A DNA stretch of 64,000 nt from an uncultured Legionellales bacterium (GTDB lineage Bacteria; Pseudomonadota; Gammaproteobacteria; Eutrophobiales; Eutrophobiaceae). The stretch's first letter is position 1. Each line of letters starts with the position of its first letter. Of the stretch, positions 7,915 to 31,208 are shown one piece after another. Below the pieces are notes generated by a model. The model was given only the letters and a program-made list of their open reading frames with translations. It had not been told where the DNA came from and did not search any database. The stretch spans positions 5,950 through 69,949 of the forward strand of contig CAJWRJ010000002.1 in assembly GCA_913046215.1 (NCBI GenBank), written 5' to 3'. The translations under genes and the position numbers were made by a program.

Positions 7915-7924
7915 ATTATAGACT

Positions 7925-9349: not shown

Positions 9350-9350
9350 A

Positions 9351-10208: not shown

Positions 10209-10231
10209 ATAACTAAATAGTAAATATAATT

Positions 10232-10696: not shown

Positions 10697-11330
10697 CTAT
10701 AAACCTTTTTATTTTTTTAAATTTTTTTATTATCTCTTCAGAATTATGAGGTGGTGAAAGTTTTGATACGAGACGCATTTTTGGATCTATAACAAAAATT
10801 GATGCAGAGTGATCGACAAGATAATTTCCTTTTTTATCATCATGATAAAATGCAACTCCAATTTGTTTTGTCAGACTATTTTTGATTTGAGGGCTGCCAT
10901 TTAGACCAATAAATTGACTGTCAAAAAATGAAACGTAAGAATTAAGTTTTTCAGTATCATCACGTTCTGGATCGACTGTAACAAATATAACTTGTACGTT
11001 TTTATATTCATTTTTAATTCTTTTGTAAGTGTCTGCCATTACCGACATTGTAATAGGGCATATATCAGGACAGTTTGTGTAACCAAAGAATATAAAAGAC
11101 CATTTTTCCTCTATTTGTTTTAATCCAAATAATTCACCATTATTATCTGTAGTGTTGAATTCTAATAATTGTTTCGGATTTGGCCAAAATAATCCCTCAG
11201 CTATATTATTTTGCTCAAGTTTTGTCTGTGATTGTTTCAATGAGATATAGAAGCCAGCGGAAGTTGCCAAAATAGCAAGAACTACCATTGATGGTATCAT
11301 GAAATTACTATGACTAAGTTTCTTAAGCAT
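10683..11330 (-). CDS. SCO1/SenC family thiol-disulfide copper chaperone
   Basis: N-terminal TM anchor and a thioredoxin-like domain with the CxxxCP motif (FFGYTNCPDICPITM). Confidence 0.85.
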   Translation of the reverse strand: MLKKLSHSNFMIPSMVVLAILATSAGFYISLKQSQTKLEQNNIAEGLFWPNPKQLLEFNTTDNNGELFGLKQIEEKWSFIFFGYTNCPDICPITMSVMADTYKRIKNEYKNVQVIFVTVDPERDDTEKLNSYVSFFDSQFIGLNGSPQIKNSLTKQIGVAFYHDDKKGNYLVDHSASIFVIDPKMRLVSKLSPPHNSEEIIKKFKKIKRFIDEKS

Positions 11331-15006: not shown

Positions 15007-16660
15007 TTTTCTTCATCCTGGTTTGTTACTTATTTTTTCTGGATTATTGATTCCTTTTTTTTCTGGATTTAGACGAACTTTATTTATTTGTATTATCCCG
15101 CTTATATCGTTATTTATTGTCTGGAATTTATCATTTGGAAGTAGTTGTACTGTCAGTTATCTAGGCTATGAATTAATTTTAATAAATTTCGATTCATTGA
15201 GTAGACTTTTTGCCACTGTATTTTGTATTACAGTTCTAGTAGCAGGATTTTTTTGCTGTAAACAAGCTAAATCTACTGAACTTGCTACTGCTTTTGTTTA
15301 TGCTGGTGCTGCTACATCAGTTATTTTAGCTGGTGATTTAATAAGTCTTTTTCTGTTTTGGGAATTAATGGCCCTTGCATCTACCTTATTAATATGGTCT
15401 TCACAAAATAATAATTCATATCAGGCAGGGATGCGCTATATTTCTATTCATTTACTCGGTGGAGTTATATTGATGTGTGGCATTGTTGGCCATGCTCATG
15501 AAACAAATTCTATTGCATTTACACAAATGCAATTAAATAGTATTTCAACTTGGTTGATTCTTTTCGGTTTCTTATTAAATGCTGGAGCACCTCCACTGTC
15601 AGCTTGGCTTGCTGATGCTTATCCTGAAACCTCGTTTAGCGGCATGGTATTTTTAAGCGCTTTCACTACTAAAACAGCAGTCTATGTTTTGATGAGAGGA
15701 TTTCCTGGTACAGATTTACTAATTTATATTGGCTTATTTATGATTTTTTATGGGATTATTTATGCATTACTTGAAAATGATATGCGTCGAATTCTTGCTT
15801 ACAGTATTATTAATCAGGTTGGTTTTATGGTTTGTGGTATTGGTATTGGCACTGAGATGGCACTAAATGGAACTGCAGCTCATGCATTTACACATATCGT
15901 TTATAAAGCCTTGTTGTTGATGTCAGCCGGTTCAGTTTTATACATGACAGGAAAAAGAAAATGTAGTGAACTGGGCGGGCTAATACAGTCAATGCCAATT
16001 ACGGCAGTTTGTGGAATTATTGGTGCGCTTTCTATATCTGCGTTTCCACTTACCTCAGGTTTTGTAAGTAAATCAATGATTTCTCAAGCTTCTGTAGATG
16101 AGCACTTATTGTGGGTATGGTTGTTATTACAGGCAGCTTCAGCAGGTGTTTTTTTACATGCGGGCATAAAATTCCCATGGTTTGTTTTTTTTCAAAAGGA
16201 CAGTGGATTAAGACCATCTGATCCACCAAAAAATATGCAAGTTAGCATGATATTTTTTGCCATGATTTGTATTTTAATTGGTATTTTTCCTAACATTCTT
16301 TATAGCATGTTGCCATACCCAGTTTTTTATCAGCCTTTTACATCTGCACATATTATTAGCCAACTACAATTACTTTTATTTTCTGGTTTAGCTTTTTTTG
16401 TGATGCTTCCACTAATGAAAAGAACATTGACTATAAGCTTGGATTTCGACTGGTTTTACCGGTGCTTAATACCTAAATTATCCTCGATAATTTTTAATTA
16501 CTTATCTAAAGTTGATATAGCTATAAAGGAAGCACTCCGTAATAAAATAGTTTTTATATTTTATAGAATAAAAATTAATTATCATTTAAGTTTAAGCAAT
16601 AGTATTTTAATAGTAATGATATTATTTTCTGTATTATTATTTTATTATTTTATAAACTAA
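14987..16660 (+). CDS. MrpA/NuoL-type antiporter-like membrane subunit lacking the MrpB-like C-terminal domain (paralog 3)
   Basis: 557 aa. Motifs WLADAYPETSFSG and AHAFTHIVYKALLLMSAGSV. It is longer than the two D-like paralogs but much shorter than canonical MrpA (~770 aa). Confidence 0.7.
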   Translation: MIIMICSFLHPGLLLIFSGLLIPFFSGFRRTLFICIIPLISLFIVWNLSFGSSCTVSYLGYELILINFDSLSRLFATVFCITVLVAGFFCCKQAKSTELATAFVYAGAATSVILAGDLISLFLFWELMALASTLLIWSSQNNNSYQAGMRYISIHLLGGVILMCGIVGHAHETNSIAFTQMQLNSISTWLILFGFLLNAGAPPLSAWLADAYPETSFSGMVFLSAFTTKTAVYVLMRGFPGTDLLIYIGLFMIFYGIIYALLENDMRRILAYSIINQVGFMVCGIGIGTEMALNGTAAHAFTHIVYKALLLMSAGSVLYMTGKRKCSELGGLIQSMPITAVCGIIGALSISAFPLTSGFVSKSMISQASVDEHLLWVWLLLQAASAGVFLHAGIKFPWFVFFQKDSGLRPSDPPKNMQVSMIFFAMICILIGIFPNILYSMLPYPVFYQPFTSAHIISQLQLLLFSGLAFFVMLPLMKRTLTISLDFDWFYRCLIPKLSSIIFNYLSKVDIAIKEALRNKIVFIFYRIKINYHLSLSNSILIVMILFSVLLFYYFIN

Positions 16661-16664
16661 AATA

Positions 16665-17651
16665 TTACTCATATCCCTCTTTATTAAACCAACTTACGGC
16701 ATCATCTAATGCCTCAGATGCTGGTCTTGCATTGTAACCTAACTCTCTTTTTGCTTTATCACTAGAAAAATACATTATTTTTTTTGACATTTTTACGCCA
16801 TCAGTTGTTACAAGAGGTTCACTATGAGTAAATTTCGAGATACACTCCATAATCCATGCAATAGGTAAGATAAAATTGTGCGGCAATTTTATTTTTGGAG
16901 GATTTATTTTTTCAATAGAGCATAAATAATTAATTATTGATTCAAGAGACATGTTGTCCCCACCTAGAATATAACGTTCCCCAATTTTTCCTCTCTGCAT
17001 TGCGAGTAGGTGTCCATGAGCTACATCATCAACATGTGCAATATTCAATCCAGTTTCAACATAAGCTGGCATTCGGTTTCTAATCGTATCAAGAATAATT
17101 TTTCCAGTTGGGGTAGGTTTTATATCTCCCGGTCCGACAGGTGTAGAGGGGTTCACTATTGTAACGGGACATGCTTCGTTTTTTATTAGATCCATTACAG
17201 CTTCTTCTGCCAAAAATTTTGATTTTTTGTAAGTCCCCACCATGTTTTCAAGTGTTGAAAAAGTTGTTTCATTTGCAGAGGTGCCATCTTGATTGGTGCC
17301 GAGAGTTGCTACGCTACTAGTGTATACAATTTTTTTCACTCCCGCTTTTTTCGCTACCTTTATTAGATTTCTAGTTCCATCAATGTTAGTTTTAAACATA
17401 TCTTTAGAATCTGGAACCCATAATCTATAGTCTGCTGCAACATGAAAAACTTGTTCACAGGAATCAACAGCAGATTCCAATGATTCGATATTTTGTAAAT
17501 CACCTTCAATTACCTTAATATCAAAATCGAAAAGATTATGTGTATTGGCACCGGGTCTTTTCAATACCTGTAAGTCATAATCCTGCTTAACGAGCAGTCT
17601 TAATAAAGCAGAACCTACAAATCCAGTCGCACCTGTAATTAATGCTTTCAT
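16665..17651 (-). CDS. hpnA: hopanoid-associated NAD-dependent sugar epimerase/dehydratase
   Basis: N-terminal Rossmann motif GATGFVGS and an SDR extended-family YxxxK. It is the last gene of the shc-hpnG-hpnN operon. Confidence 0.7.
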   Translation of the reverse strand: MKALITGATGFVGSALLRLLVKQDYDLQVLKRPGANTHNLFDFDIKVIEGDLQNIESLESAVDSCEQVFHVAADYRLWVPDSKDMFKTNIDGTRNLIKVAKKAGVKKIVYTSSVATLGTNQDGTSANETTFSTLENMVGTYKKSKFLAEEAVMDLIKNEACPVTIVNPSTPVGPGDIKPTPTGKIILDTIRNRMPAYVETGLNIAHVDDVAHGHLLAMQRGKIGERYILGGDNMSLESIINYLCSIEKINPPKIKLPHNFILPIAWIMECISKFTHSEPLVTTDGVKMSKKIMYFSSDKAKRELGYNARPASEALDDAVSWFNKEGYE

Positions 17652-17655
17652 AAAA

Positions 17656-18264
17656 TTATTTTTTAAGTATTAGATAACTTCTTATTACGAAAAAATAGAA
17701 TATTGGCGCACCAATGGCTGCCGCAGTTATGAAGTAATATTCTAATTTATAATATGTAATGATTGGGAGAATATACAATGAATCCTCTGCTTCGAAACCA
17801 CTTTTGAATGGTTGACGGGCCTTATTTTTACCAATCTCTTTTTCGATTTTATTTCTTGTATAGAATATTGCTGCAACTGAAACACCAGCAACGATTCCTA
17901 TTGGTAGCGCATAAAAACCTAGACTGCTATGAATAAGGCCAATACTAATACCAATAAATAAAAATATATTAACAAGAGCATCAGAGATAAGGTCGTACGT
18001 ATGTCCTTTAATACTAGTTTCATTTTTTAATCTCGCTAACTCTCCATCAGCATGATCTAAAAAATTTGAAAACACAAAACAACACGCACCAGCATTACTG
18101 TATAAATATTCACCAATTGAAAAGAAAAACCCAGCTAAAAGTCCAAAAAATAATCTTAATGTTGTTAAATAATTGGGTGTAACGAAAGTATTACGAAGTG
18201 GATATATCAATCTATATGCGATTTGAGCATCCCATGGTCTACTATCTGATGGATCAATTAGCAT
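17656..18264 (-). CDS. CDP-alcohol phosphatidyltransferase family protein (paralog 1, between hpnN and hpnA)
   Basis: 202-aa polytopic protein with the complete catalytic motif D-x2-D-G-x2-A-R-x8-G-x3-D-x3-D (DHADGELARLKNETSIKGHTYDLISD). 6-bp gap to hpnN and 4-bp gap to hpnA. Confidence 0.8.
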   Translation of the reverse strand: MLIDPSDSRPWDAQIAYRLIYPLRNTFVTPNYLTTLRLFFGLLAGFFFSIGEYLYSNAGACCFVFSNFLDHADGELARLKNETSIKGHTYDLISDALVNIFLFIGISIGLIHSSLGFYALPIGIVAGVSVAAIFYTRNKIEKEIGKNKARQPFKSGFEAEDSLYILPIITYYKLEYYFITAAAIGAPIFYFFVIRSYLILKK

Positions 18265-18270
18265 TTTGCT

Positions 18271-20868
18271 TTATTTGTATGAAGAATCTCGCCATATCAA
18301 AAACGAGGGTAATACTATCATAGTTGCGAACATCATGGATATTAATCCCACTGATAAAAGTAATCCCATGCTTGCAGTGCCTTGATGTGATGAAAACGCA
18401 AGATTTCCGATACTAAATATTGTTGTTAGGCTACTTATAATGACACCCTTCATTGAGCTAGTTATATAAATATTAGTTTGTGTATTTTTTTCCTCATAGA
18501 ATCGCTCCGTAATATGAATACCACTATCAACGCCAATTCCAAGTAGTAACGGAAGACCGATGATATTCGCAAAATTCAGGGGAATATTAAAGAAAAGCAT
18601 GAATCCCAATGTGAAAATACTACCTATTAATACGGAAATAAGAATAATAAGCGCATCATATTTTATTTTTATTAGAAGCATCAATAGTATTGCTATTGCA
18701 ATAAAAGCACATAAAAACGCGAATTTGAATGCACTTTTTACAGCATTTCCAGCTTCAATACTTATAATTGGAGAACCAATAACATCTTTATTGAAATCTT
18801 GAAGTTGATAAACAAAATTTCTCATTGATATATTATTATTTAAATCTTCCTTAGGTAAAATTTTTATTAAATATTTTTCATCACTTACCCATCTTTTATA
18901 AATTTCATCTGGAATATTATTAATCGTAACTTCTTCAGCATTTAATGCATCTGATAATGCTTTTATCCGTCCTGGAAAATTTTCTAAAAATTGATTTTCA
19001 ATAGCTTTAATTTTTTTATCATCATCATCATTTAAATTAGATAATAGATTATTCAAGTTGCTATTTAGTAAAATCATCTGATTATCAGAATTATGCACCA
19101 GATAGTTATCTAATATAGTTTTTAGTTTTTTTATAGCAGCTATTCTATGATTTTTACTTATCTCTAATTCAGACGATCTGTTTTCTAAATTACCCATCAA
19201 TAAGCTCATTTCATCAATAATAATGAGTTTATCATTTTGTTCTTCAGGAATAAGATTATGTATAGATATTGCATTATCAACTAGAGGTAATAATTTAATT
19301 TCATTCTTTTTCAGATTGGTTTGATCAGCAGATTCAACTATTAGTATCCCTTCCCAAGGTGATGTAGAGCTATCTTTAAGTAGTTCCTGATACGTTTTTA
19401 CTGATTCATTTTTAGGATCTTGCAGATTTAATCTATTTTCATCGAAATCTATTTTATTTATGAATAATAAAATAAAAGAAACTATTAAAAATATAAATAT
19501 GAGAATAATTTTTGAATATTTATACGGTAACCAGCATAAAAAATTTATAATATTATTATTTTTTATAATATTAGCAGATCTTAGTGTTTTAATTGATGTA
19601 TAGCTTAGTAATGCAGGTAACAATGTTATGGTTAGGATAAAGCTAATTATCATTCCAGATCCTGCTATCCATCCAAGTTCAGCGACACCTGTATAGCTTG
19701 TTGGTATAAATGCATAAAATCCAATAGCCGTTGTTAAAGCACATAAGACTAGAGGTTTCATTATAAATTTTAATGTGTTTTTAATAATCTTAGTGCGATT
19801 TAACTCGGAAATAGATTCTTCTCTATATCTAAGGGCCATGTGTATTGCAAAATCAATTCCCAATCCGATATATAATACAGCGAATGCTATAGATATTAGA
19901 TTTAAAGTTCCAACTGTAATTGAAGCGAAGGCAGTTGTTATTATTAACCCAACTATAAGTGTCGTAAGGCAAGCTACTACAATACGAAAGGAACCAAGAC
20001 CAATGGTTAAAATAGTTGCGACGAGAATAATCGATAGAAAAATTGCTTTTATATTTGCGTTAGACACACTTTTTAGTTCTTCATAAGCTAAAACCTCGCC
20101 TCCTGTTAATTTGATATTAACTTTCGAATTTTTATATGGTTCTATAGCTTTTCGTATATATTCAATAGTATTTTCATTAGGTAATAGACTGTCATCAATT
20201 GTATTTATTTGTAGTTCAATAAATTCCCTATATGTATTCTTTTTTTCATATTTTGGATCCATTAATCTTTGCCATGAAACTGAATAATTTATATCACCGA
20301 ACGCAAGATTTATTTCAGATAGTATTGGATTTAATTGAATAGATTTATCATCTTGTTTAGCTTCAATAGCATCTCCGAGCATATCAAATAATCCACGTAA
20401 ATTTCTATCTTCAAGTAATGATCCTAAAAAAGGTTGAATTTTAGCGAGATTATCAGATAAGTCTTGTAATTCATCGTGTTCAAGAAATAGAAATGAAGAT
20501 TCCTTGAAGTAGGAAAAATCACTTTGATAGTAGATATTTTTTATGAAATTATTATTTTTTAATGAGGTAGAAATTTTTTGAGCAGTATCACTTGCTAAAT
20601 CTGGTGTTTGAGCTTCAATAACAATGATAATGTTATCTAAAAATTGTGGAAATAATTTTTCATACTGGATATCAAGCTGCCTCCAGTGTAACTTTTCCGA
20701 CAACATCTCACTGGTGTCTGTACTAAAACTTAAATTATTCTTAATAGTACTTAATGATAATATTGTAATTAGAGTGACAGAGAATATTATTAGAATTCTT
20801 CTTTTATCTAGAAACCTGCTCCAGAATGAAACAAGCCTTTCATTACGATATGTATTTTTTTTATTCAC
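18271..20868 (-). CDS. hpnN: hopanoid-associated RND/MMPL-family transporter
   Basis: 865 aa with two 6-TM bundles and large periplasmic loops (MMPL/RND topology). Embedded in the hopanoid operon. Confidence 0.75.
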   Translation of the reverse strand: MNKKNTYRNERLVSFWSRFLDKRRILIIFSVTLITILSLSTIKNNLSFSTDTSEMLSEKLHWRQLDIQYEKLFPQFLDNIIIVIEAQTPDLASDTAQKISTSLKNNNFIKNIYYQSDFSYFKESSFLFLEHDELQDLSDNLAKIQPFLGSLLEDRNLRGLFDMLGDAIEAKQDDKSIQLNPILSEINLAFGDINYSVSWQRLMDPKYEKKNTYREFIELQINTIDDSLLPNENTIEYIRKAIEPYKNSKVNIKLTGGEVLAYEELKSVSNANIKAIFLSIILVATILTIGLGSFRIVVACLTTLIVGLIITTAFASITVGTLNLISIAFAVLYIGLGIDFAIHMALRYREESISELNRTKIIKNTLKFIMKPLVLCALTTAIGFYAFIPTSYTGVAELGWIAGSGMIISFILTITLLPALLSYTSIKTLRSANIIKNNNIINFLCWLPYKYSKIILIFIFLIVSFILLFINKIDFDENRLNLQDPKNESVKTYQELLKDSSTSPWEGILIVESADQTNLKKNEIKLLPLVDNAISIHNLIPEEQNDKLIIIDEMSLLMGNLENRSSELEISKNHRIAAIKKLKTILDNYLVHNSDNQMILLNSNLNNLLSNLNDDDDKKIKAIENQFLENFPGRIKALSDALNAEEVTINNIPDEIYKRWVSDEKYLIKILPKEDLNNNISMRNFVYQLQDFNKDVIGSPIISIEAGNAVKSAFKFAFLCAFIAIAILLMLLIKIKYDALIILISVLIGSIFTLGFMLFFNIPLNFANIIGLPLLLGIGVDSGIHITERFYEEKNTQTNIYITSSMKGVIISSLTTIFSIGNLAFSSHQGTASMGLLLSVGLISMMFATMIVLPSFLIWRDSSYK

Positions 20869-20909: not shown

Positions 20910-21659
20910 TTAAACTTTAAAAATATATTCTTTATTAGGGTTACGTTCAATATCAGGAGGATAGCTAAGACGTTTATCAGAATAGTACTTTTCGCGACTA
21001 TCGCCTTCCGACATTGCATTATATGTTACATAGAGCACTCTTCTTTTAACATGAGTTAGATTTGGCCCAGAGCGATGCGGTGCGTATGAATCAAAAAATA
21101 TAGCATCACCGGGTTCTGTTTGTACGGGTTTGTAATCAAGCGCATTTTCCTCAAGGGGCGCCCATTGCTCTCCAATTAAACCTTTATCATGATGATTGGC
21201 AGCTATTTCAAGACATCCATTTTCAGTATTTGAGGCATCAATAGTTACTAATGCTGTAATATGTAGCTTTGCATACTTGTCCCATCCTGCCTGAACATCC
21301 TGATGAGCCTTAAATCCATCACCACCTGGCATTTTAAAATTTATTTTATCCTTGAATAGAATTGCATTTTCTCCAAATAGTTCAGATGTTATGTTTTGAA
21401 TTTTTCCAGATATGAAAAGCTCACTAAAACCTTTATGAAAGGGTTCTAAATTTTCCATACGCGATAGTATTCGTTTTTTTTCATTAATCTTACTTTGTTC
21501 AAAATACATCATATATTTATTTTTAATCTCAGGATAATTTGCAACCTCATCAACCCATTGTGTGATCTCATTCAGTTCTTCTCCGTAGTACAATTTACGT
21601 ACTATTAAAAAACCAGTATTTTTGAAGTTTTGAATTTGTTTATTAGATAATCTCATCAT
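20910..21659 (-). CDS. phytanoyl-CoA dioxygenase (PhyH)-like Fe(II)/2-oxoglutarate-dependent oxygenase
   Basis: 249 aa with a PhyH-like layout. Candidate H-x-D...H facial triad (HQD ... APHRSG). Lies between hpnG and hpnN in the same operon. Confidence 0.55.
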   Translation of the reverse strand: MMRLSNKQIQNFKNTGFLIVRKLYYGEELNEITQWVDEVANYPEIKNKYMMYFEQSKINEKKRILSRMENLEPFHKGFSELFISGKIQNITSELFGENAILFKDKINFKMPGGDGFKAHQDVQAGWDKYAKLHITALVTIDASNTENGCLEIAANHHDKGLIGEQWAPLEENALDYKPVQTEPGDAIFFDSYAPHRSGPNLTHVKRRVLYVTYNAMSEGDSREKYYSDKRLSYPPDIERNPNKEYIFKV

Positions 21660-21674
21660 AAAATTTTAATAAAT

Positions 21675-22397
21675 TTATAATTTATTATATATAAAAAAAT
21701 CTCTTTTCTTAAATTCATCATACATATTATTTAATGATGATAATGACTTAATATAGCTCTTTATTAGGGAGATTAATTGAAATAATTGAAATGGATTTTG
21801 TAATGATGATTTTAAAAAACTTTTTATTTTAATTTTTCCGAAGTTATCAATATTTTCTAAAAATATAGATGGTATATTTGAATATGCATCATCTATTATC
21901 ACACGCGCTGATACAAATTTTATTTTTTTTTCAAGAGAAATTTTAGCTATAGCTGCACTTTCCATATCAACTGCTAATGCTTTTGTTTGGTTTGATAATT
22001 CCCTTTTTTTAATTGATGAATCAAGAATTTTATTAGTTGTCACAATTTTGCCATTTAATACTTTGTATGGTGTAGTCTGAAGATGGGAACTGATAGAGTT
22101 TCTCCATTCATTCGAAGTATAAAATATTTCTTTATCATTTTGTATAGTATCAGCTAGAACGATATCACCTGTTTTTAGTGATTGATCTATACCTCCTGCC
22201 ATTCCCCAACTTATCAATCCATCTATATTTTTTTTAACTAACTCCTTCGCTGCTGATGTTGCAGCATCAAATCCAATTCCGGATATGTATAAAAAAATAT
22301 TCTTTTCAATTTGTATTGATTCTTTCAGAGCTAATTTTTTTAACCGAAAGCATTTTGCTTCAGATGGTATAGCTATAATAATTCCAATTCTTTTCAA
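21675..22397 (-). CDS. hpnG: hopanoid-associated nucleoside phosphorylase/nucleosidase (PNP/UDP family)
   Basis: 240-aa PNP_UDP_1-like fold (GIIIAIPSEA ... GMAGGI). Immediately downstream of shc with a 1-bp gap. Confidence 0.7.
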   Translation of the reverse strand: MKRIGIIIAIPSEAKCFRLKKLALKESIQIEKNIFLYISGIGFDAATSAAKELVKKNIDGLISWGMAGGIDQSLKTGDIVLADTIQNDKEIFYTSNEWRNSISSHLQTTPYKVLNGKIVTTNKILDSSIKKRELSNQTKALAVDMESAAIAKISLEKKIKFVSARVIIDDAYSNIPSIFLENIDNFGKIKIKSFLKSSLQNPFQLFQLISLIKSYIKSLSSLNNMYDEFKKRDFFIYNKL

Positions 22398-22398
22398 G

Positions 22399-24342
22399 TT
22401 ACTTTTCTAATATGTTTCGATATCGAGCAAGCGCCCAAAGAGGAAAATATTTCGAATAGCCATGATATTTTAAATAAAAGACACGGGGAAATCCTGGCGC
22501 TGTAAATGAATTGTCATACCATTGCCCGTTTGATAATTGAGTCGATAGCAGATAATTTACTGCTTTTTTAACAGACGGATTTTTTTCCTCTCTGGATGCT
22601 AATAGCGAGAGCAACACCCATGCAGTCTGAAAAGCGGTACTTTTGAATGGCCTATGTATTTTAGGAGGATAATAACTGTCATTGCTTTCACCCCATCCCC
22701 CATCATCATTCTGAGTAGAAACAAGATATTTGACGGCTTTACGAATATAGTCTTGTTGTGGATCTTGTCCTGCAATCTCAAGAGCGGTCAGTACTGACCA
22801 AGTACCATATATATAATTAGTACCCCAACGACCAAACCAAGAACCATTTTCCTCCTGCTCAGTTTTGAGATATTCAATTGCGCTATTGATTTGTTTTTCA
22901 TACATCTCTACATCAGCTAGACTTAATAGAGCTATTGCTCGTCCGGTTACGTCTGCAGTAGGGGGGTCAAGTAAAGCACCGTGATCTGCAAATGGAATTT
23001 CATTAAGATAATAATGTGTATTATCGGTATCGAACGAACCAAAACCACCATTTCGAGACTGCATACCAGCAACCCAGTTAGCAGCACGATCTATTGATTT
23101 AGAATATATGTTCTTTTTTGTTCTATGCATAGCCCATGCAACGACCGATGTATCATCTAAGTCAGGATAATAATAATTGCTATATTGAAAAGCCCAACCA
23201 CCACCAGCTAATTCTGGTTTTTGTATACGCCAGTCACCGGGTTCATTACTTAACTGACGTTCTTTAAGCCAATCCAGTGCATTTTTAATTTCCGTTGTTG
23301 TATTTTTTTCATTTTCAGTTTCTATTAAGGCATGACTTACTAGCGCGGTATCCCATATAGGCGACATACAAGGCTGGCAATACATTGATGTTCCGTTATC
23401 TTTCAATAATGAATCAATTGCTTGACGAGCTAACTTTCTTTTTGGATCACTTTTTGGGTATCCAAGTACAACTAACGATTCATATACATTAACCATTGCA
23501 GGAAAAATACCACCAATACCGTGTTTTTCATTCATCCTTGCTAAAAACCATTGCTCACATTTTCTTATAGAATATTGTCGTATAAATTTAGGAACTAATT
23601 TTTCAGCTAAACGTCCGAAACGATCAAGAACCAAAAATGCACGTTTTAGAGGTGTTGTTACTTTAAAATAGTTTAATTCATCTTCTGGAGGCGTAATAAA
23701 TAATTCTCTTATATCAATACCTCTTGGATTAGATGCTTTTGGTTTCATTGTGCACAAAACAAATAAAGGCACCATGACAGTACGAGACCAATAGGAGACT
23801 TTGTTAATATGAAATGGAAACCACTTAGGTAAAATTATAACTTCAGCAGGTATAAAAGGTGTTGCTCTCCAAGGCACCTGTCCAAATAGTGCCATCGTGA
23901 TTCTCGTGAATACATTACACATTGCCGCACCACCATGATTTAAAATCATAGTTTTTGCACGAATCATATGTTCTTCATGAGGCTCATCACCTATTAGTTT
24001 TAAAGCAAAATAAACTTTAACAGAGCAACTTAAATCAAAATTACCTCCAGTGTATAAAGACCAGCCACCTTCTTCATTTTGTTGTGAACGTAAATATTCA
24101 GCTATTTTCTCTTCTTTATCGTTATCAATTTCCCCAGTGAAGTGGTTCATTAAAATATATTCAGCAGGAATAGTGCAATCAGCCTCAAGCTCATATACCC
24201 AATGACCATCATTAGATTGTTTTGACAGTAGGTTTTTTTTAGCAGAATTAATTGCTTTATTTAAGCTTAACGTGAAGTCTTTATTGCGTATATTATTAGC
24301 AGACTGGCTGAGCAAGCTCTCGTTTTGATTATCTAATGTCAT
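22399..24342 (-). CDS. shc: squalene-hopene cyclase
   Basis: 647 aa. DxDDTA catalytic motif present as DLDDTS. Multiple QW repeats (QNEEGGW, QSRNGGFGSF, QEENGSWFGRW, QNDDGGWGE, QLSNGQW). Confidence 0.92.
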   Translation of the reverse strand: MTLDNQNESLLSQSANNIRNKDFTLSLNKAINSAKKNLLSKQSNDGHWVYELEADCTIPAEYILMNHFTGEIDNDKEEKIAEYLRSQQNEEGGWSLYTGGNFDLSCSVKVYFALKLIGDEPHEEHMIRAKTMILNHGGAAMCNVFTRITMALFGQVPWRATPFIPAEVIILPKWFPFHINKVSYWSRTVMVPLFVLCTMKPKASNPRGIDIRELFITPPEDELNYFKVTTPLKRAFLVLDRFGRLAEKLVPKFIRQYSIRKCEQWFLARMNEKHGIGGIFPAMVNVYESLVVLGYPKSDPKRKLARQAIDSLLKDNGTSMYCQPCMSPIWDTALVSHALIETENEKNTTTEIKNALDWLKERQLSNEPGDWRIQKPELAGGGWAFQYSNYYYPDLDDTSVVAWAMHRTKKNIYSKSIDRAANWVAGMQSRNGGFGSFDTDNTHYYLNEIPFADHGALLDPPTADVTGRAIALLSLADVEMYEKQINSAIEYLKTEQEENGSWFGRWGTNYIYGTWSVLTALEIAGQDPQQDYIRKAVKYLVSTQNDDGGWGESNDSYYPPKIHRPFKSTAFQTAWVLLSLLASREEKNPSVKKAVNYLLSTQLSNGQWYDNSFTAPGFPRVFYLKYHGYSKYFPLWALARYRNILEK

Positions 24343-24398: not shown

Positions 24399-25454
24399 TT
24401 AAAGTTTCTCATGAATATTAACTCTAGGCAAATGTCGCCCAGTAAGTTTAATAAGAAATCTCAATATAGCATCATTTTTTACGAAAATGCTTGTAATTAG
24501 AATGGTTAATTTTACACTAAGATGACTAATTTTTACTTCTTTTCCATTGGTAAAATTTGGGTTTTTTCTAATTTTTTCCAGCGTTAACACGGCCATTCCA
24601 ATAGCCCATAAGCAGAATTTACGCAAACCTATTTCATTTTTTGGGATCAATAAAGTATAAGTCAATGCATTTTCAAGGTGAGCATATGCAACTCCCAATA
24701 ATTCAATTAATGCATTATTAAATTCATTTATATTCTGATTAGGTTTTTTAGTGCTTATGTCAATACCATATTTTTTAAAATGATCTTTTGGTAGCCAACA
24801 TGCTCCCCTACTATGATCTTCCCAAATATCCTTCAGGATATTTGTCATTTGTAATCCTTGCCCAAACGAAACAGCTAGCTCCATTAATTTTTTTTGATTT
24901 TTATCAATATCAGTTGAATAATCACAAAATAACTCAGTTAACATTTCACCCACAACCCCAGCTACATGGTAGCAATAATCATTCATGTCTTTTATATTCT
25001 TTAATCCATTTAATGATTCCTCGATTTGATATTTAGCCATACCCTTACACATAATTGAAACGCAACGATTTAAGGCACTTAATTGTCGCTTGTTAAAACT
25101 ATGTGTTACACGGATAACTTTTTCTGTATTAGCAATTAAGTTATGTTCTGCATCAGTTGCATTTGGTGAGAGTATATCGAATAGTTTTTTAGAAAAAATA
25201 TTAACATTTTTATTATTTCTTACTACATCAATAAACATATCAGCGTACTCTTTCTTTTGTTCAATAGACATTGATTTATCATCTTCAATTGAATCTGCTA
25301 TTCGACAAAGAAGGTATGCATTAGATACAACCAGTCTTAATTTCTCTGGTAATTGGGGTATTGTAAGAGCAAATGTACGGGAAACATGTTGTAATATCAT
25401 ATGTTGGTAAGCAACATCATCCGGAACTGTGTTAAACTCTTGCGTGGATTTCAT
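24399..25454 (-). CDS. sqs: squalene synthase (single-enzyme, eukaryote-type farnesyl-diphosphate farnesyltransferase)
   Basis: 351-aa isoprenoid_synt_type2 enzyme with VSRTFALTIPQLP (the SQS SRSF-type motif) and Asp-rich ADSIEDD. First gene of the operon ending in hpnA. Confidence 0.8.
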   Translation of the reverse strand: MKSTQEFNTVPDDVAYQHMILQHVSRTFALTIPQLPEKLRLVVSNAYLLCRIADSIEDDKSMSIEQKKEYADMFIDVVRNNKNVNIFSKKLFDILSPNATDAEHNLIANTEKVIRVTHSFNKRQLSALNRCVSIMCKGMAKYQIEESLNGLKNIKDMNDYCYHVAGVVGEMLTELFCDYSTDIDKNQKKLMELAVSFGQGLQMTNILKDIWEDHSRGACWLPKDHFKKYGIDISTKKPNQNINEFNNALIELLGVAYAHLENALTYTLLIPKNEIGLRKFCLWAIGMAVLTLEKIRKNPNFTNGKEVKISHLSVKLTILITSIFVKNDAILRFLIKLTGRHLPRVNIHEKL

Positions 25455-25565: not shown

Positions 25566-26300
25566 ATGAATATATATAATTTAAATAATAATGAAATTGA
25601 TCTCTCCACAAAGAATATTTATGTTCTATTATTAAATTTTTCCATGTTAAATTATCAAGATTACATGACATATTTATCTGATGATGAAATACAAAGAGTT
25701 GATAACATAAATAATAAAATTAAAAAAAATCAATTTGTTATTTCTAGAGCCATTGTAAAGAAGCTATTATCGAAATATTTGAGTAAAATACCAAATCAAA
25801 TTGAATTCTCATACAACAAACATGGAAAACCATTTGTACCTGAAAAATATAATAATCATAGTTTAGAGTTTAATATTTCACATTCAGATATATATGGATT
25901 AATAGCAATTACATTAGACAATAAGATAGGTGTTGATATACAAAGGGTTAATCATGACATTAATATAGATTCATTATCTGAACGTTTCTTTAGTGAAGAT
26001 GAAAAAGAACAATTAATGAAATTTGATAAAAATAAAAGAGCAGATGTTTTCCATAATTGCTGGGTTAAAAAGGAATCATTTATTAAAGCAATTGGATCAG
26101 GTGTAGCATATGGTCTTGATAATTTTAGTGTCTCATTAGAGGAAAACCATCGTAATTATGTCTTAGATTTAAAAAATAAAAAATGGTACTGTTATAAATT
26201 AATTGAATTTGAAAATTACAAAACTGCTTTAACAATGGAAACAAAATCTAATATTTTTCTATCATATAAAGAAAATTATATCAGTAATATTCTGCACTAA
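25566..26300 (+). CDS. Sfp/EntD-type 4'-phosphopantetheinyl transferase
   Basis: Motifs GKPFV, IGVDIQ and W-x-x-KES-x-x-KA-x-G (WVKKESFIKAIGSG). Confidence 0.75.
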   Translation: MNIYNLNNNEIDLSTKNIYVLLLNFSMLNYQDYMTYLSDDEIQRVDNINNKIKKNQFVISRAIVKKLLSKYLSKIPNQIEFSYNKHGKPFVPEKYNNHSLEFNISHSDIYGLIAITLDNKIGVDIQRVNHDINIDSLSERFFSEDEKEQLMKFDKNKRADVFHNCWVKKESFIKAIGSGVAYGLDNFSVSLEENHRNYVLDLKNKKWYCYKLIEFENYKTALTMETKSNIFLSYKENYISNILH

Positions 26301-26306
26301 AAATAA

Positions 26307-27101
26307 TTGAGTATATCTAGTATGAAAAATACTACGCATAATTGGTATGACCTTCCAACATATTATGACGTTTCATTTTCATATGATATGAAAGATGAAT
26401 TGTCCTTTATTAGTAACGTATTTAGAAAATATTTAATATTGAATTCACCAAAATTGCTCGAGCCAGCATGTGGAACAGGACGTTTAATTGTCCCATTGGT
26501 AAAAAAAGGATTTAATTGTTCTGGATTTGATTTAAATGAAAATGCATTATTATATTTAAAAGAAAAACTTAATCGTAATAATTTGTATGCAAATATAAAG
26601 AAAGCTGATATGTCTACTTTTGAAGTAGAGAATAAATATGATGGAATTTATTGTACAGTCGATACATTTCGACATCTTCTTACGGAAAAAAAAGCAATAC
26701 AACACTTAGAAAATGTTTCGTTCGCACTAAAGAAAAATGGCATATATATATTAGGATTACATATAATTCCTAGACATAAAAAAATTGAAAAAATAGTCAA
26801 GTGGACTGCAAGAAGAGGTTCTTTAACAGTTAAAACAATCATGTCAATGATAAAGCTTGATATGAAAAGAAGAAGAGAGACATTGAGGGTAGTCTTAAAA
26901 ATTAAAAAAAATACTACTAGAGAATCCTATGTATCTATATATCAGTTAAGGACATATACATTGCCTCAGATATTAAACATAATAAATAAAGTAGAGGATT
27001 TAGAAATTATCAATACCTACAATGAGTACTATGATTTATCTAGTCCAATAATTTTAAATTCTGACTCAGATTATGCTGTATTCTTACTTCGTAAAAAGTA
27101 A
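26307..27101 (+). CDS. class I SAM-dependent methyltransferase
   Basis: Motif I LEPACGTGRL and an acidic motif II (GFD). 264 aa. Confidence 0.7.
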   Translation: MSISSMKNTTHNWYDLPTYYDVSFSYDMKDELSFISNVFRKYLILNSPKLLEPACGTGRLIVPLVKKGFNCSGFDLNENALLYLKEKLNRNNLYANIKKADMSTFEVENKYDGIYCTVDTFRHLLTEKKAIQHLENVSFALKKNGIYILGLHIIPRHKKIEKIVKWTARRGSLTVKTIMSMIKLDMKRRRETLRVVLKIKKNTTRESYVSIYQLRTYTLPQILNIINKVEDLEIINTYNEYYDLSSPIILNSDSDYAVFLLRKK

Positions 27102-27111
27102 CTCTCGCAAG

Positions 27112-27699
27112 CTAATTAGTTATTTTTTTTAATAAATAATATGTAAATATTGCAAATATAGGAGCACCTACCGATGCACCGATGAGAAAAGGAAGATGCC
27201 AGTTTAACCAAACTATCGGGGCAAAAAGATATATGATATCGTCGAAATCAAAACCAGCTATTCCTGTGTATGCTTTTTCTCCTGTGGCTCTCTTTTTTTG
27301 ATCTATTTTTTCAGCAAAAATCTCAGAAAAAATTACGCCAATACACGCAGACAAACCCATCATTATTGTCAGATAGTTAGGTAATTTATCTTGTAGGCCT
27401 ATCCCGATTGCTAGAAAAAAAAGTGCCGTAATAAAAGTGTCAGTGTAATAGTCAAATTTATGACCTAAAGAACTAATATTTCCAGAGATTCTAGCAAGCT
27501 CTCCATCAGCTCTATCAAGAAAAGTTGATATTATCCACATTACACCACCCAAAATATTCATTTTTAATGCAAAAGCAACACATGCTGCCAATCCTATTAT
27601 TAGCCTTAAAAGTGTGACGTGATTTGGAGTGATAGGCGTATTGACTAACGGTTTAATACATACTCGAGCAATCTTATGAGTCCAAGAGTCACCAATCAT
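27112..27699 (-). CDS. CDP-alcohol phosphatidyltransferase family protein (paralog 2, last gene of hpnI-J-K operon)
   Basis: 195 aa. Full catalytic motif DRADGELARISGNISSLGHKFDYYTD. Shares N-terminal ITPNxxTLLRL and C-terminal GAPIF segments with paralog 1. 2-bp gap after hpnK. Confidence 0.8.
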   Translation of the reverse strand: MIGDSWTHKIARVCIKPLVNTPITPNHVTLLRLIIGLAACVAFALKMNILGGVMWIISTFLDRADGELARISGNISSLGHKFDYYTDTFITALFFLAIGIGLQDKLPNYLTIMMGLSACIGVIFSEIFAEKIDQKKRATGEKAYTGIAGFDFDDIIYLFAPIVWLNWHLPFLIGASVGAPIFAIFTYYLLKKITN

Positions 27700-27701
27700 T
27701 T

Positions 27702-28433
27702 TTATGAGTTGAAGCCCGAAAGTTCAATATTAAATTTTTCGATAGTTCTTTTTATTCGAGCGTGTATAAGGGCTTTGTATTCTTCAACAAACTCGTAGTT
27801 ATAAAGTGTATTATCATTTTCTGTTGAGGGGTGAGTATAAATTTCAGTTATACCATCTTTTATATGCGGAATAATACGCACAAGTTTATCAATATTCATA
27901 TGCCCACTATCATGTAGACCATAAATATAATTGTTAAAAATAATCTTATTGTTTTTACATTTTTTCTCCATTTGATATGTAAATATCGAAAAAAATAACC
28001 ATCTAATATATCTCATAAAAAATTCTTTTTTATTATAAATAATTGAATTAAGAGGAGGTTCATTTGGAATACGGATGGCTGTTAAATTATACTCCCTTCC
28101 AATTTCTATAATTAAATTAAATATAGTTGGGTGAAGGTGCATATGATTATGTGCATTTACATGATCTAGTTTTAAACCTGTTTTTTTAAATGCTTTAAAT
28201 TGCGCCCGTATTTCTTTTTTTAGTTCAGATCTCGCTTTGTTATTGAAAAAATAATTTACTCCACACCAAAATTTATTATTACTAAACTCACATTTACTAT
28301 TTACCAAATTTGGTATTTCGACAATTGGTAATGAAGATTTCCCATTAGATAGTACAATATGCAAACCTACGTTTAATTCAGGATTTTTTTTTGCAATTTT
28401 TACTGCATGGCTGGCTTCTGGTGCAGCAATCAT
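27702..28433 (-). CDS. hpnK: hopanoid-associated YdjC-family deacetylase HpnK (annotated from first ATG; the true N-terminus very probably extends ~35 codons upstream to a CTG at 28538, see findings)
   Basis: YdjC-like core. The in-frame upstream sequence encodes the family's catalytic N-terminus KKVIVTGDDFGLSVPVNNAILKSFTNGILTTTSL, which aligns to ChbG LLIVNADDFGLS...GIVTSTT. Confidence 0.7.
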   Translation of the reverse strand: MIAAPEASHAVKIAKKNPELNVGLHIVLSNGKSSLPIVEIPNLVNSKCEFSNNKFWCGVNYFFNNKARSELKKEIRAQFKAFKKTGLKLDHVNAHNHMHLHPTIFNLIIEIGREYNLTAIRIPNEPPLNSIIYNKKEFFMRYIRWLFFSIFTYQMEKKCKNNKIIFNNYIYGLHDSGHMNIDKLVRIIPHIKDGITEIYTHPSTENDNTLYNYEFVEEYKALIHARIKRTIEKFNIELSGFNS

Positions 28434-28534
28434 TAGGCTTGTTGTTGTTAATATCCCATTCGTGAAGGATTTTAATATGGCATTGTTTACAGGAACTGAA
28501 AGACCAAAATCATCACCCGTAACAATTACTTTTT

Positions 28535-29956
28535 TCAGACTGTATTCTCCCGTCCAAACAAGAATTTGAAAAATTCAACACCTTCTCTTAGTCTGCGTTT
28601 CATAATTTCCCAATCTTTGCACATTTCAAAAAATAGTATAACCATTTTTTTTGGCCTAAAATAAAAACGTTTATAGAAATTATCAACTGCTTCAAAAATT
28701 TCTTTACTTGAAAGATGTGGATAATTGAGTATTGAGTGTTGAACTCCATCACTACCAACTAAATCATCATCCGCAACTAACCAACCATTTTCAACTGCCT
28801 GATTATATAAGTAAGTTCCTGGATAGGCGGCAGGGAGTGATACCTGTATTGTTTGTGGGTTTAACTCTTGTGCATATTTTATCGTCTCTTCTATAGTTTC
28901 ATTTGTTTCGCCTGGCAAACCCACAATAAATGTTCCATGAATAAGAATTCCCAGTTTATGACAATCTCTTGTGAATTGTCTTGCTATATCAAGCCTTATG
29001 CCTTTTTTTATATTTACTAATATATCTTGATTTCCAGATTCATATCCAACTAGCAGCAAACGCAAACCATTATCTTTCATAATTTTTAGTGTTTCATATG
29101 GGACATTTGCTTTCGCATTACAAGACCATGTAATACCAAGTTTTCCAATTTCTTTTGCAAGAGCTTCAACATGAGAAATATTGTCGGTCAATGTGTCATC
29201 ATCAAAAAAGAATTCTTTAATTTCAGGAAAGTTATCACGCGCCCATAATACTTCTGCAGCAATATTTTCCACAGAACGTGTCCGGTAATTATGTCCAGAG
29301 ATTGTTTGAGGCCATAAACAAAAAGAGCAACGAGATTTACAACCTCGACCCGTATAAAAGGACATATAAGGGTGAAGCATATAGCCATTAAAATAATCAG
29401 TAGTAGTAAGATGTTTTTTATAAACTTTAGTAACCCATGGAAGACTATCCATATTTTCAATCATTGCACGAGGTTTATTATGTATAACAACTCCATTTTT
29501 TTTATAGGTTAATCCATCTATATTTTCTATTATTTTCCCTTCTGCTACTTCTTTAATCGTAAAATCAAATTCATTTCCAGCAACAAAGTCAATTGCATCT
29601 GAAGCAAGAATTGAGTGATCTGGATTAACTGCTACATGCGCACCACAAAAACCAATAATAAGATTTTTGTTTTCATGTTTTAGTGCTTCAGCAATGCGTA
29701 CATCATTAGGAAATGAGGGAGTGCTTGTGTAGAGAACTATTAATTCATAATCTTTAGCTAGAGGTAGAATATCTTCAAGTGAAGTACCTCTTGCTGGCGC
29801 ATCTATTAATTTACTTCCTTCAATTAATGCAGCTAATTGTGCAAGCCATGTTGGATACCAAAAAGATTTAACTTCACGCGTACATTGATAACGTGAACCT
29901 GCACCTCCATCAAAGCCGTTATAGGATGGCGGATTTAAAAAAAGTGTTTTTAACAT
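28535..29956 (-). CDS. hpnJ: hopanoid-associated B12-binding radical SAM protein HpnJ
   Basis: 473 aa. N-terminal cobalamin-binding-like domain followed by a radical-SAM CxxxCxxC (GCKSRCSFC). Its size and domain order fit HpnJ rather than the shorter HpnH. Confidence 0.75.
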   Translation of the reverse strand: MLKTLFLNPPSYNGFDGGAGSRYQCTREVKSFWYPTWLAQLAALIEGSKLIDAPARGTSLEDILPLAKDYELIVLYTSTPSFPNDVRIAEALKHENKNLIIGFCGAHVAVNPDHSILASDAIDFVAGNEFDFTIKEVAEGKIIENIDGLTYKKNGVVIHNKPRAMIENMDSLPWVTKVYKKHLTTTDYFNGYMLHPYMSFYTGRGCKSRCSFCLWPQTISGHNYRTRSVENIAAEVLWARDNFPEIKEFFFDDDTLTDNISHVEALAKEIGKLGITWSCNAKANVPYETLKIMKDNGLRLLLVGYESGNQDILVNIKKGIRLDIARQFTRDCHKLGILIHGTFIVGLPGETNETIEETIKYAQELNPQTIQVSLPAAYPGTYLYNQAVENGWLVADDDLVGSDGVQHSILNYPHLSSKEIFEAVDNFYKRFYFRPKKMVILFFEMCKDWEIMKRRLREGVEFFKFLFGRENTV

Positions 29957-29978
29957 ATTATCATTAATTCAGTTTGTG

Positions 29979-31208
29979 TTATGTATCTTGAGGTGAAATA
30001 GTGTCAGTTGTTTTATTTTCACGGTTTTTCTCTGATGAAATTATTTTTTCATCATGCATTAAACCTAGATGATCAACAGCGAATTTATTTTTACGCCACT
30101 CCACGGAATTTCCAGCATAACTCAATATTCTTATAAAAAAGGTTAGTGTATCTCGTAGCGGAATTAACCATATTTTTCCAACTCTCCCCGAATCTGTAAC
30201 TTCATTAGTTTTAGAATACATATATACTCTTATAATAAGGGTTATAAATATAGGAAATAAAAATAATACAAAACTATTACCTATCACATAAAGTGAAGTC
30301 CCAGCAAAAATGCTCAAAATTAAACTATCCGTTAAAAAAGTGAGAGCATAACCATAAGGCTCTACTCGTCTAAGTGTTCTTGCCCAACGTAGTTCATGTA
30401 AAATTAAATTTTTAAACGAGGATTCCTCAACTACATTCTTCACGATACAGTTCGATAAATGAATTTTATAGCCAATATTAGATATTAGTTTTCCTAACAT
30501 GTAGTCATCAGCTAGATGATTTGATAATGCTTCAAATCCACCAATTTTATGAAGAATACTTCGTCTTACTATCATTGTAGCACCTAGACAATACTCTATA
30601 GGTTTTATCATTTTTGATATTAATACCGATGGTAGAAACCAGTTATTTATGAACATTGTATTTAACATAGATGTTATTTTTTTTGTAGCTGATCCAAAAT
30701 AAAGACAAGTAATAGCACCAGTATTAGGATCGTCAAATGGTTTTATCACTTGAGATAGATAGTTTTCGTTAACCTGCATGTCACTATCAGCGATAAGCAT
30801 AAATTCATACTTTATTGAAGGACACATGTTTATCAAATTTGATACTTTATGATTTGTTCCATGTCGTTCCGTATTTATTATGAAACTTATATCAACATCA
30901 TTCAGCTCTTTTATAATCTTTTTTACTATAGGTAACGCTTCATCATTAACATCTTGCAATCCAAAAATAATTTGGTATTTCGGGTAATTTTGTTGACAAA
31001 AGCTCTTTAGATTTATGTACATTTCCGGATCAAGCCCATAAATCGGTTTTAATATACTAATTGGAGGCTGGAATTTCTTATCGTCTGAAAATGTATTTTT
31101 GTTCTTAAAAATTGAAATAGCTACTAAACCAGCGAATAGATATCCTAAGGAGAAGATCCAAAGTGATATTGATGCCATTAACAATATGTTGAGAAAATCA
31201 ATTTGCAT
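29979..31208 (-). CDS. hpnI: hopanoid-associated family-2 glycosyltransferase
   Basis: 409 aa with an N-terminal TM, GT2 fold, DxD (ADSDMQ) and a C-terminal TM region. First gene of the hpnI-J-K operon. Confidence 0.65.
   Translation of the reverse strand: MQIDFLNILLMASISLWIFSLGYLFAGLVAISIFKNKNTFSDDKKFQPPISILKPIYGLDPEMYINLKSFCQQNYPKYQIIFGLQDVNDEALPIVKKIIKELNDVDISFIINTERHGTNHKVSNLINMCPSIKYEFMLIADSDMQVNENYLSQVIKPFDDPNTGAITCLYFGSATKKITSMLNTMFINNWFLPSVLISKMIKPIEYCLGATMIVRRSILHKIGGFEALSNHLADDYMLGKLISNIGYKIHLSNCIVKNVVEESSFKNLILHELRWARTLRRVEPYGYALTFLTDSLILSIFAGTSLYVIGNSFVLFLFPIFITLIIRVYMYSKTNEVTDSGRVGKIWLIPLRDTLTFFIRILSYAGNSVEWRKNKFAVDHLGLMHDEKIISSEKNRENKTTDTISPQDT

Follow-up and report, generated by a model that had tools for sequence, protein, structure and literature searches.

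The stretch of DNA analysed here (the window; 64,000 nucleotides from an uncultured Legionellales bacterium) contains a hopanoid operon in which the open reading frame (ORF) at 20910–21659 of the minus strand, starting with ATG, encodes a 249-amino acid protein predicted to be a PhyH-fold Fe(II)/2-oxoglutarate (2OG) oxygenase of a PhnY/PhnY*-like subfamily. This ORF is referred to below as the PhyH gene, and all of the relatives and orthologues were compared against its protein. In our estimate there is an even chance that it encodes a PhnY-type alpha-hydroxylase, which would make a 1-hydroxy-2-aminoethylphosphonate head group within a hopanoid-linked phosphonate module. The comparison covered 80 loci, one genome per species, that encode relatives of the window protein at 54–75% identity. 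Directly established are the fold with its catalytic residues, the synteny with hopanoid genes, and the physical linkage of orthologues to 2-aminoethylphosphonate (AEP) biosynthesis genes and to CDP-alcohol (CDP-OH) phosphatidyltransferases. The gene context and the conservation of residues suggest a hydroxylation alpha to phosphorus.

Oxygenase fold and relationship to PhnY-type enzymes

A total of 4419 database homologues were found at E < 1e-5, many of them 65–76% identical over the full length, and the PhyH gene is therefore a real gene and not a chance ORF. As the homologues begin at the second methionine, the true start is possibly 21656. The protein matches Pfam family PF05721 (PhyH) with 67.7 bits against a cut-off of 22, residues 13–207 spanning profile positions 2–212 of 213. 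A PDB profile search mapped the iron-binding triad and the 2OG-binding arginine onto the HQD, H and R of proline hydroxylase H11 (7e01/7dzz). The HxD motif H119-Q120-D121 (cat-cag-gat, 21297–21305) aligns to the HQD of 7e01, the distal iron-binding residue H195 (21075–21077) aligns to the histidine of its 'PHSS', and the first residue of the R206-R207 pair (21039–21044) aligns, in the hidden Markov model alignment, to the arginine that binds the C5 carboxylate of 2OG; all of these codons are on the minus strand. H119, D121, H195, R206 and R207 are invariant in an alignment of 28 homologues (64–76% identity), and H119, D121, H195 and R206 are also invariant in 77 locus-derived sequences, which include both AEP-linked and hopanoid-only members.

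The AlphaFold model of the protein (pLDDT 77, pTM 0.81) has a beta-rich core, as expected of the double-stranded beta-helix fold. Judging from the aligned residues and this model, the PhyH gene encodes an intact PhyH-fold Fe(II)/2OG oxygenase. The best Foldseek matches were proline hydroxylase H11, PHYHD1, GriE, EctD and human PhyH (probability 1.00, TM-score 0.6–0.71), and these structural neighbours include hydroxylases of small zwitterionic substrates, namely proline, leucine and ectoine. The fold and the iron/2OG ligands of PhyH/PAHX, EctD, GriE and H11 are common with those of the window protein, but the sequences are just 16–21% identical, and the EctD model TIGR02408 is matched with 37.9 bits, far below its cut-off of 336.5. 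The PhyH superfamily name is no evidence for an isoprenoid-CoA substrate.

The best curated family match is NF052437 (PhnY*, methylphosphonate hydroxylase), which aligns over nearly the full length of the protein with 207.9 bits (E = 1.8e-61). The orthologue from the Nostocales cyanobacterium HT-58-2 reaches 208.1 bits on the same model. Since such a score remains under the equivalog cut-off, the window protein represents a related subfamily and not an equivalog. Several family members carry the JGI name 2-aminoethylphosphonate dioxygenase. Like the window protein, PhnY* (Gimesia maris type, NF052437) and PhnY (EC 1.14.11.46) are PhyH-fold Fe(II)/2OG oxygenases of about 250 amino acids; the HxD...H...R motifs and a conserved Lys/Arg/Asn/Tyr set are common to the window protein and a relative partnered with PhnZ. 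PhnY* and PhnY hydroxylate the carbon next to phosphorus, which is the chemistry proposed here for the window enzyme too. No solved structure of PhnY or PhnY* was found by PDB sequence search or by Foldseek, which returned generic PhyH-fold neighbours only.

The relatives found by tblastn against plasmids were all less than 40% identical and were used as outgroups, not as orthologues. Two of them are 37–38% identical to the window protein. The one from Rhodococcus is the PhnZ-partnered relative, as it adjoins an HD-domain protein in the PhnY*/PhnZ arrangement, whereas the one from Rhizobium rhizogenes is found between a phosphocholine-cytidylyltransferase-family (PntC-like) gene and LicD; the context of a Nostoc plasmid relative was uninformative. 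The window protein is about 38% identical to the PhnZ-partnered relative and is encoded without such a partner. No HD-domain PhnZ-type gene adjoins the PhyH gene in the window, nor does one occur among the gene families that recur near it in the 80 loci, and no phosphonate transporter adjoins it in either. The operons of PhnY and PhnY* are catabolic, whereas the window gene is part of a biosynthetic lipid operon, and the hydroxylated product would therefore stay uncleaved.

Hopanoid and aminoethylphosphonate genes around the orthologues

In the window, the PhyH gene is separated by 15 bp from the upstream hpnG (adenosylhopane nucleosidase/phosphorylase family, 21675–22397; PF01048), for which TIGR03468 is still the best match although its 166.6 bits are below the cut-off of 187. 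The downstream gene, at a distance of 41 bp, is hpnN (18271–20868), coding for an RND (resistance-nodulation-division) hopanoid transporter (TIGR03480, 785 bits, above cut-off). Farther upstream are shc for squalene-hopene cyclase (22399–24342; TIGR01507, 802 bits) and a single squalene synthase gene (SQS_PSY, 24399–25454; PF00494, 181 bits; TIGR01559, 130 bits), and farther downstream are the first CDP-alcohol phosphatidyltransferase gene, CDPOH1 (17656–18264; PF01066), whose product is the proposed head-group transferase partner, and hpnA (16665–17651; TIGR03466, 475 bits), a short-chain dehydrogenase/reductase (SDR) known as the hopanoid-associated 'sugar epimerase'. All of these genes are on the minus strand. 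The ORFs and their Pfam and TIGRFAM matches agree with the first-pass annotation, which had described a PhyH-like protein of this length, with these two gaps, in an shc-hpnG-hpnN-transferase-hpnA operon and had expected it to be co-expressed with the hopanoid genes. No terminator-like hairpin was found between hpnG, the PhyH gene and hpnN on the minus strand, and, as judged from the spacing, the three genes are predicted to be co-transcribed.

A promoter-like site (TTAAGA-17-TATAAT, 21712–21684, minus strand) falls within the 3'-terminal part of hpnG, a short distance before the PhyH start. In this AT-rich region promoter-like sites are rarer than in shuffled sequences (40 versus 59), and because they are not enriched, the site was rejected as evidence for a separate promoter of the PhyH gene.

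The neighbourhoods of the 80 loci were searched by tblastn with the hpn proteins of the window, linkage being defined as a distance within 10 kb. A core hpn gene is linked to the PhyH gene in 64 of the 80 loci, and both hpnG and hpnN are linked in 47, mostly in the order squalene synthase-(shc)-hpnG-PhyH gene-hpnN-(CDP-OH transferase)-hpnA. Direct adjacency to hpnG was observed in most of the related loci. Closed MAG (metagenome-assembled genome) chromosomes, for example OZ245888.1, and the near-complete 2.66-Mb contig JAYQJO010000001.1 also carry the operon. The alphaproteobacterial loci have hpnC on one side of the PhyH gene and hpnD/E-shc-hpnG on the other, and no phosphonate gene is found up to 10 kb away. 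The linkage to hpn genes spans Gamma-, Alpha- and Betaproteobacteria, as well as Cyanobacteria. Neither of the two findings named in the first-pass annotation as refuting it, a lost iron-binding triad and a lack of hpn neighbours in every related genome, was obtained. With the triad intact and the hpn neighbourhood conserved, both the membership in the PhyH superfamily and the linkage to hopanoid operons are therefore supported.

The other 16 loci are free of hpn genes. Fifteen of them, from metagenome-assembled genomes (MAGs) of the Lysobacterales/Xanthomonadales type, have orthologues of 57–59% identity in a cluster with AEP and lipopolysaccharide (LPS) genes. The order in this AEP/LPS block is PepM fused to a nucleotidyltransferase (PepM-NT; TIGR02320, 394 bits), phosphonopyruvate decarboxylase (Ppd; TIGR03297, 425 bits), a PEMT-like methyltransferase, 2-AEP aminotransferase (AEPT; TIGR03301, 386 bits, above cut-off), Glyphos_transf-like, YejM-like and YidC-like proteins, the PhyH orthologue, DUF6165 and LPS core genes. 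The block is a cluster for 2-aminoethylphosphonate biosynthesis and envelope decoration. The orthologue was found together with PepM, Ppd, AEPT and PntC genes in seven LPS-type loci, and in two loci of the type (L051 and L054) no PepM was within reach. The sixteenth hpn-free locus (L080) carries a CDP-OH transferase, the PhyH orthologue, PepM-NT, Ppd and AEPT, with neither hpn nor LPS-type genes.

In the AEP/LPS clusters, a YejM/sulfatase-family protein (DUF3413 and Sulfatase domains) and a YidC-like paralogue of 470–490 amino acids are always encoded directly upstream of the orthologue (for example, at 6668–9972 in L066 and 6650–9981 in L051). A DUF6165 protein always follows the orthologue in the Lysobacterales clusters, and a 53% identical protein is encoded in the window at 60360–60755 (plus strand). 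DUF6165 was considered as a partner of the PhyH gene and rejected, because in the window the two are 40 kb apart and the DUF6165 gene adjoins a heptosyltransferase, which ties it to LPS.

Orthologues of 56–60% identity adjoin PepM-PntC, Ppd, AEPT and CDP-OH transferase genes, either in hopanoid clusters or in hpn-free AEP clusters. In L061, the order is PhyH orthologue-PntC-PepM-Ppd-AEPT-CDP-OH transferase-hpnA-hpnL, and in L065 (Pelomicrobium sp. G1) it is CDP-OH transferase-PhyH orthologue-PntC-PepM-Ppd-AEPT-hpnL-hpnN. L031 contains the order hpnN-hpnA-hpnL-PntC-PepM-Ppd-AEPT, and hpnL adjoins PntC/PepM in all three of these loci. In L057 and L059, AEP genes are found inside or beside the hopanoid cluster that carries the orthologue. 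One Logan contig (L089), with flanks (MurJ/ProB/Obg) that match those of the window, encodes polyprenyl synthase, squalene synthase, shc, hpnG, the PhyH orthologue, hpnN, PntC, PepM, Ppd and AEPT on one strand. Another contig (L087/L088) has the exact order of the window, squalene synthase-shc-hpnG-PhyH-hpnN-CDP-OH transferase-hpnA, with PepM-Ppd and AEPT-PntC located about 13 kb away. A neighbourhood that appears to be hopanoid-only therefore does not imply a genome without AEP synthesis.

The cluster of the cultured Nostocales cyanobacterium HT-58-2 (L086) consists of HpnJ (819 bits), HpnI, a B12 radical S-adenosylmethionine (SAM) protein, a CDP-OH transferase, the PhyH orthologue (60% identical), PntC, PepM-NT, Ppd, AEPT, a Rieske oxygenase, HpnH (548 bits) and HpnA (491 bits). 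The B12 radical-SAM protein (7738–9369, plus strand; 543 amino acids) is weakly similar to PhpK-type P-methyltransferases. The Rieske oxygenase (15775–16755, minus strand) is KshA/VanA-like and is a more conventional candidate for hopanoid C–H hydroxylation than the PhyH gene. The clade closest to the window includes none of L086–L089.

A neighbour-joining tree with the R. rhizogenes relative as its root shows the family as one tight clade. The AEP/LPS clade branches from among the hopanoid-linked ones, and loci with both hopanoid and AEP genes are basal or intermediate. In the AEP-linked group (n = 21) as well as in the hopanoid-only group (n = 56), 57 residues reach an invariance of at least 97%, and the sole group-specific position is a conservative I/L at 162. 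Residues common with the PhnZ-partnered Rhodococcus relative are K103, K105, N107, K109, D141, N147, S197, N200, R206, R207, Y210, T212, N214, R222 and Y225; of these, K103, K105, N107, K109, R206, R207 and R222 make up a basic and polar set. No active-site difference was detected between the AEP-linked and hopanoid-only groups, and nothing points to a change towards a bulky hydrophobic substrate. CDPOH1 is 47% identical (195 bits) to the CDP-OH transferase of L086, which abuts the PhyH orthologue and PntC-PepM-Ppd-AEPT, and 45% identical to that of L061, whereas its identity to the two other CDP-OH transferases of the window, its paralogues, is 35% and 31%. By these identities, CDPOH1 groups with the CDP-OH transferases of AEP clusters.

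Proposed head-group chemistry and competing explanations

In the proposed pathway, AEP would be made by PepM, Ppd and the AEP transaminase, and PntC would convert it to the donor CMP-AEP. The substrate of the PhyH enzyme would be the AEP moiety, whether free, CMP-activated or lipid-bound, and hydroxylation at the carbon adjoining phosphorus (C-1) would give 1-hydroxy-2-AEP. A lipid-bound substrate would best explain why the PhyH gene travels with lipid genes and not with pepM. The CDP-alcohol phosphatidyltransferase encoded beside hpnN and hpnA would use a lipid alcohol as the acceptor of the phosphono head group. This acceptor is most plausibly a bacteriohopanepolyol (BHP), as the conserved company of hpnG, hpnN, hpnA and hpnL suggests, and the product might then be exported by HpnN. 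In eukaryotes, CDP-alcohol phosphotransferase-family enzymes make AEP lipids from CMP-AEP. We infer the substrate, the position hydroxylated and, above all, the hopanoid nature of the acceptor lipid.

According to the literature, CDP-OH-type phosphonolipid clusters with a 2OG oxygenase have been predicted, but never shown, to make 1-hydroxy-AEP lipids (Li & Horsman 2022, PMC8942020), and Bacteriovorax does possess lipids with 1-hydroxy-AEP as the head group (PMC8942020). The 'Burkholderiales_CDP-OH'/Group 1 phosphonolipid clusters (Yu et al. 2013, as described in PMC8942020) comprise, according to that description, a PepM-PntC fusion, Ppd, AEPT, a second PntC, a CDP-OH transferase and a 2OG oxygenase. 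The same set was found in L061, L065, L080, L086 and L089, with the PhyH orthologue as the oxygenase. The product of the Burkholderiales_CDP-OH clusters was never characterised, and here the module is joined to hopanoid genes. Squalene synthase and cyclase genes in the AEP clusters of Nitrosococcus "hint at a possible phosphonoterpene" (PMC8942020), the source of this 'terpene-phosphonate' (PMC7285500) offering only an antiSMASH label, and shc is linked to pepM in Roseomonas according to a genome-mining paper on Acetobacteraceae (PMC8776678). As in the loci described above, pepM/AEP genes are linked with squalene synthase and hopene cyclase in these clusters. The papers on Nitrosococcus and Roseomonas are, however, limited to one-line speculation and name no role for a PhyH-like gene, no transferase and no product, whereas here the linkage is widespread, centred on the PhyH oxygenase and present even without adjacent AEP genes. 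No description of the role of the PhyH-like hopanoid-operon gene was found in the searchable literature.

Several observations weigh against a phosphonate substrate. PepM, Ppd, AEPT and PntC are absent from the 64-kb window, and about 59 of the 64 hopanoid-linked loci have no AEP biosynthesis genes within 10 kb. The closest partners of the PhyH gene are hpnG and hpnN, not phosphonate genes, and a CDP-OH transferase is encoded within 10 kb in just 28 of the 64 hopanoid loci. In L088, whose 66-kb contig also carries a window-like hopanoid operon, the AEP module encodes at 9490–10848 (minus strand) a CDP-OH transferase of its own and an unrelated HalD/2OG-FeII_Oxy_3-type oxygenase of 239 amino acids. 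The genome thus possesses two pairs of oxygenase and transferase, and its hopanoid-operon enzyme could have a different job. The PhnY* score of 207.9 bits is far under the 500-bit equivalog cut-off, and the HxD loop is of low confidence in the AlphaFold model (pLDDT below 50). No phosphonate-bearing hopanoid has been reported in the searchable literature. Because of these weak points, direct hydroxylation of the hopanoid stays a live rival.

This rival corresponds to the function suggested in the first-pass annotation, in which the hopanoid itself is hydroxylated, at C-30/C-31 of the side chain or at a ring carbon, to give bacteriohopanepentol, bacteriohopanehexol or another oxidised BHP. We regard it as unlikely, even though the hpnG-hpnN position is kept in 47 loci and the hpn linkage in 64, across several phyla and classes, most of the hopanoid loci show no AEP genes nearby, and the alphaproteobacterial arrangement (hpnC ... 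hpnD/E-shc-hpnG) has no phosphonate genes within 10 kb. The genes for the pentol and hexol are unknown according to a 2025 survey (PMC12583986), in line with the earlier statement that no enzyme is established for this step. Nevertheless, AEP/LPS clusters that lack any hpn gene within 10 kb contain orthologues of equal identity (57–59%), and these orthologues fall inside the hopanoid-linked clades, which suggests that the hopanoid carbon skeleton is not the direct substrate. In addition, no group-specific change was found in the active site, the nearest characterised relatives and the structural neighbours use small charged molecules, and the numerous conserved lysines and arginines fit an anionic substrate. 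Hence, of the function assigned earlier, the PhyH family and the hopanoid linkage stand, and the hopanoid carbon as the substrate is probably wrong in view of the best match to PhnY*, the orthologues in AEP clusters and the uniform active site.

A different small polar substrate may also be supplied by HpnG, for example at the C-35 anomeric carbon of (phospho)ribosylhopane, the product being a ribonolactone-type hopanoid, or it may be a non-phosphonate amino- or phospho-alcohol head group. HpnG-type enzymes are reported to yield phosphorylated ribosylhopane, and Nitrosomonas is known to contain a ribonolactone hopanoid. The location of the PhyH gene directly after hpnG in nearly all of the hopanoid loci and the ability of PhnY-type pockets to bind a phosphate or phosphonate group would fit such a role. 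However, it leaves unexplained both the orthologues in hpnG-free AEP/LPS clusters and the direct PhyH gene-PntC-PepM adjacency, and since none of the tools used pointed to such a substrate, we consider this explanation quite improbable. Far less credible is a catabolic PhnY/PhnY*-type enzyme whose place in the hopanoid operon would be accidental and which would begin oxidative C–P cleavage, so that the cell gains phosphorus from AEP or methylphosphonate in its environment. The best NCBIfam match is indeed PhnY*, some members bear the JGI name of an AEP dioxygenase, and the source is apparently a marine, low-GC gammaproteobacterium, a setting in which phosphonate scavenging is common. On the other hand, neither the window nor any of the 80 loci has an HD-domain PhnZ partner or a phosphonate transporter next to the gene, the score is 208 bits against an equivalog cut-off of 500, and chance does not account for an operon position that is conserved among lipid genes.

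Other hopanoid-associated genes and implications

The window, with a G+C content of about 32%, encodes two more CDP-alcohol phosphatidyltransferases, one adjoining hpnK (27112–27699, minus strand; PF01066) and one at 32472–33149 (plus strand) with NCBIfam matches to archaetidylinositol-phosphate synthase-like models. The three transferases share 31–36% mutual identity, are found within 16 kb of hopanoid genes and have archaetidylinositol-phosphate/PIP-synthase-like proteins as their best models; only that at 17656–18264 groups with the transferases of AEP clusters. The hpnK-hpnJ-hpnI genes (27702–31208, minus strand; TIGR03473, 259 bits; TIGR03471, 762 bits; TIGR03472, 382 bits), known for the glucosamine/cyclitol ether of bacteriohopanetetrol, are followed in coordinate order by hpnL (31380–32354, minus strand; TIGR03476, 254 bits), which encodes a flippase-like/LPG-synthase transmembrane protein. 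In contrast to hpnG, hpnI, hpnJ and hpnK, the adenosylhopane synthase gene hpnH was not found among the annotated ORFs of the 64-kb window.

Squalene would be supplied in the window by the single eukaryote-type squalene synthase and not by HpnCDE. HpnA also matches the model of the sterol C-4 demethylase SdmB (219 bits, cut-off 600), which shows its closeness to sterol-modifying SDRs. On the opposite strand, the interval that separates the squalene synthase from the second CDP-OH transferase contains two genes (25566–27101, plus strand), which code for a 4'-phosphopantetheinyl transferase and a class I SAM methyltransferase. This pair is kept in L010, L014 and L040, whereas in the related MAG L081 (1–5838) its place next to the squalene synthase is taken by a megasynthase similar to polyunsaturated fatty acid and polyketide synthases and a PfaD-like enoyl reductase.

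Hopanoids belong to the major membrane lipids of bacteria and serve as geological biomarkers, and much of the dissolved organic phosphorus in the sea consists of phosphonates. The analysis suggests that the enzyme is a biosynthetic branch of the PhnY-type phosphonate hydroxylases that resides in hopanoid operons and points to a product class not yet characterised. More tentatively, and with the balance somewhat against it, many hopanoid producers may attach a (1-hydroxy-)2-AEP head group to bacteriohopanepolyols by means of the PhyH oxygenase and a CDP-alcohol transferase. The results would be phosphonate triterpenoid lipids of a class not described so far, which the usual hopanoid work-up may overlook, and part of the marine phosphonate would be bound in lipids. 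The producers would include uncultured Gammaproteobacteria that are abundant in the sea, Nitrosococcus-like Chromatiales, some members of the Alpha- and Betaproteobacteria, and Nostocales cyanobacteria. A direct test is feasible, as the Nostocales cyanobacterium HT-58-2 and Pelomicrobium sp. G1 are cultured carriers, to which the literature adds the clusters of Nitrosococcus and Roseomonas.

Even if only the negative part of the argument holds, the PhyH gene should not be taken as the missing hydroxylase for bacteriohopanepentol or bacteriohopanehexol without an assay. If hopanoids do bear a phosphonate head group, the inventory of composite bacteriohopanepolyols misses a class, and both 2-AEP and 1-hydroxy-AEP would gain a new biological source and a new function. 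The family, members of which are automatically annotated as "phytanoyl-CoA dioxygenase" or as catabolic "PhnY", would then need re-annotation, and this would affect metagenomic estimates of phosphonate degradation.

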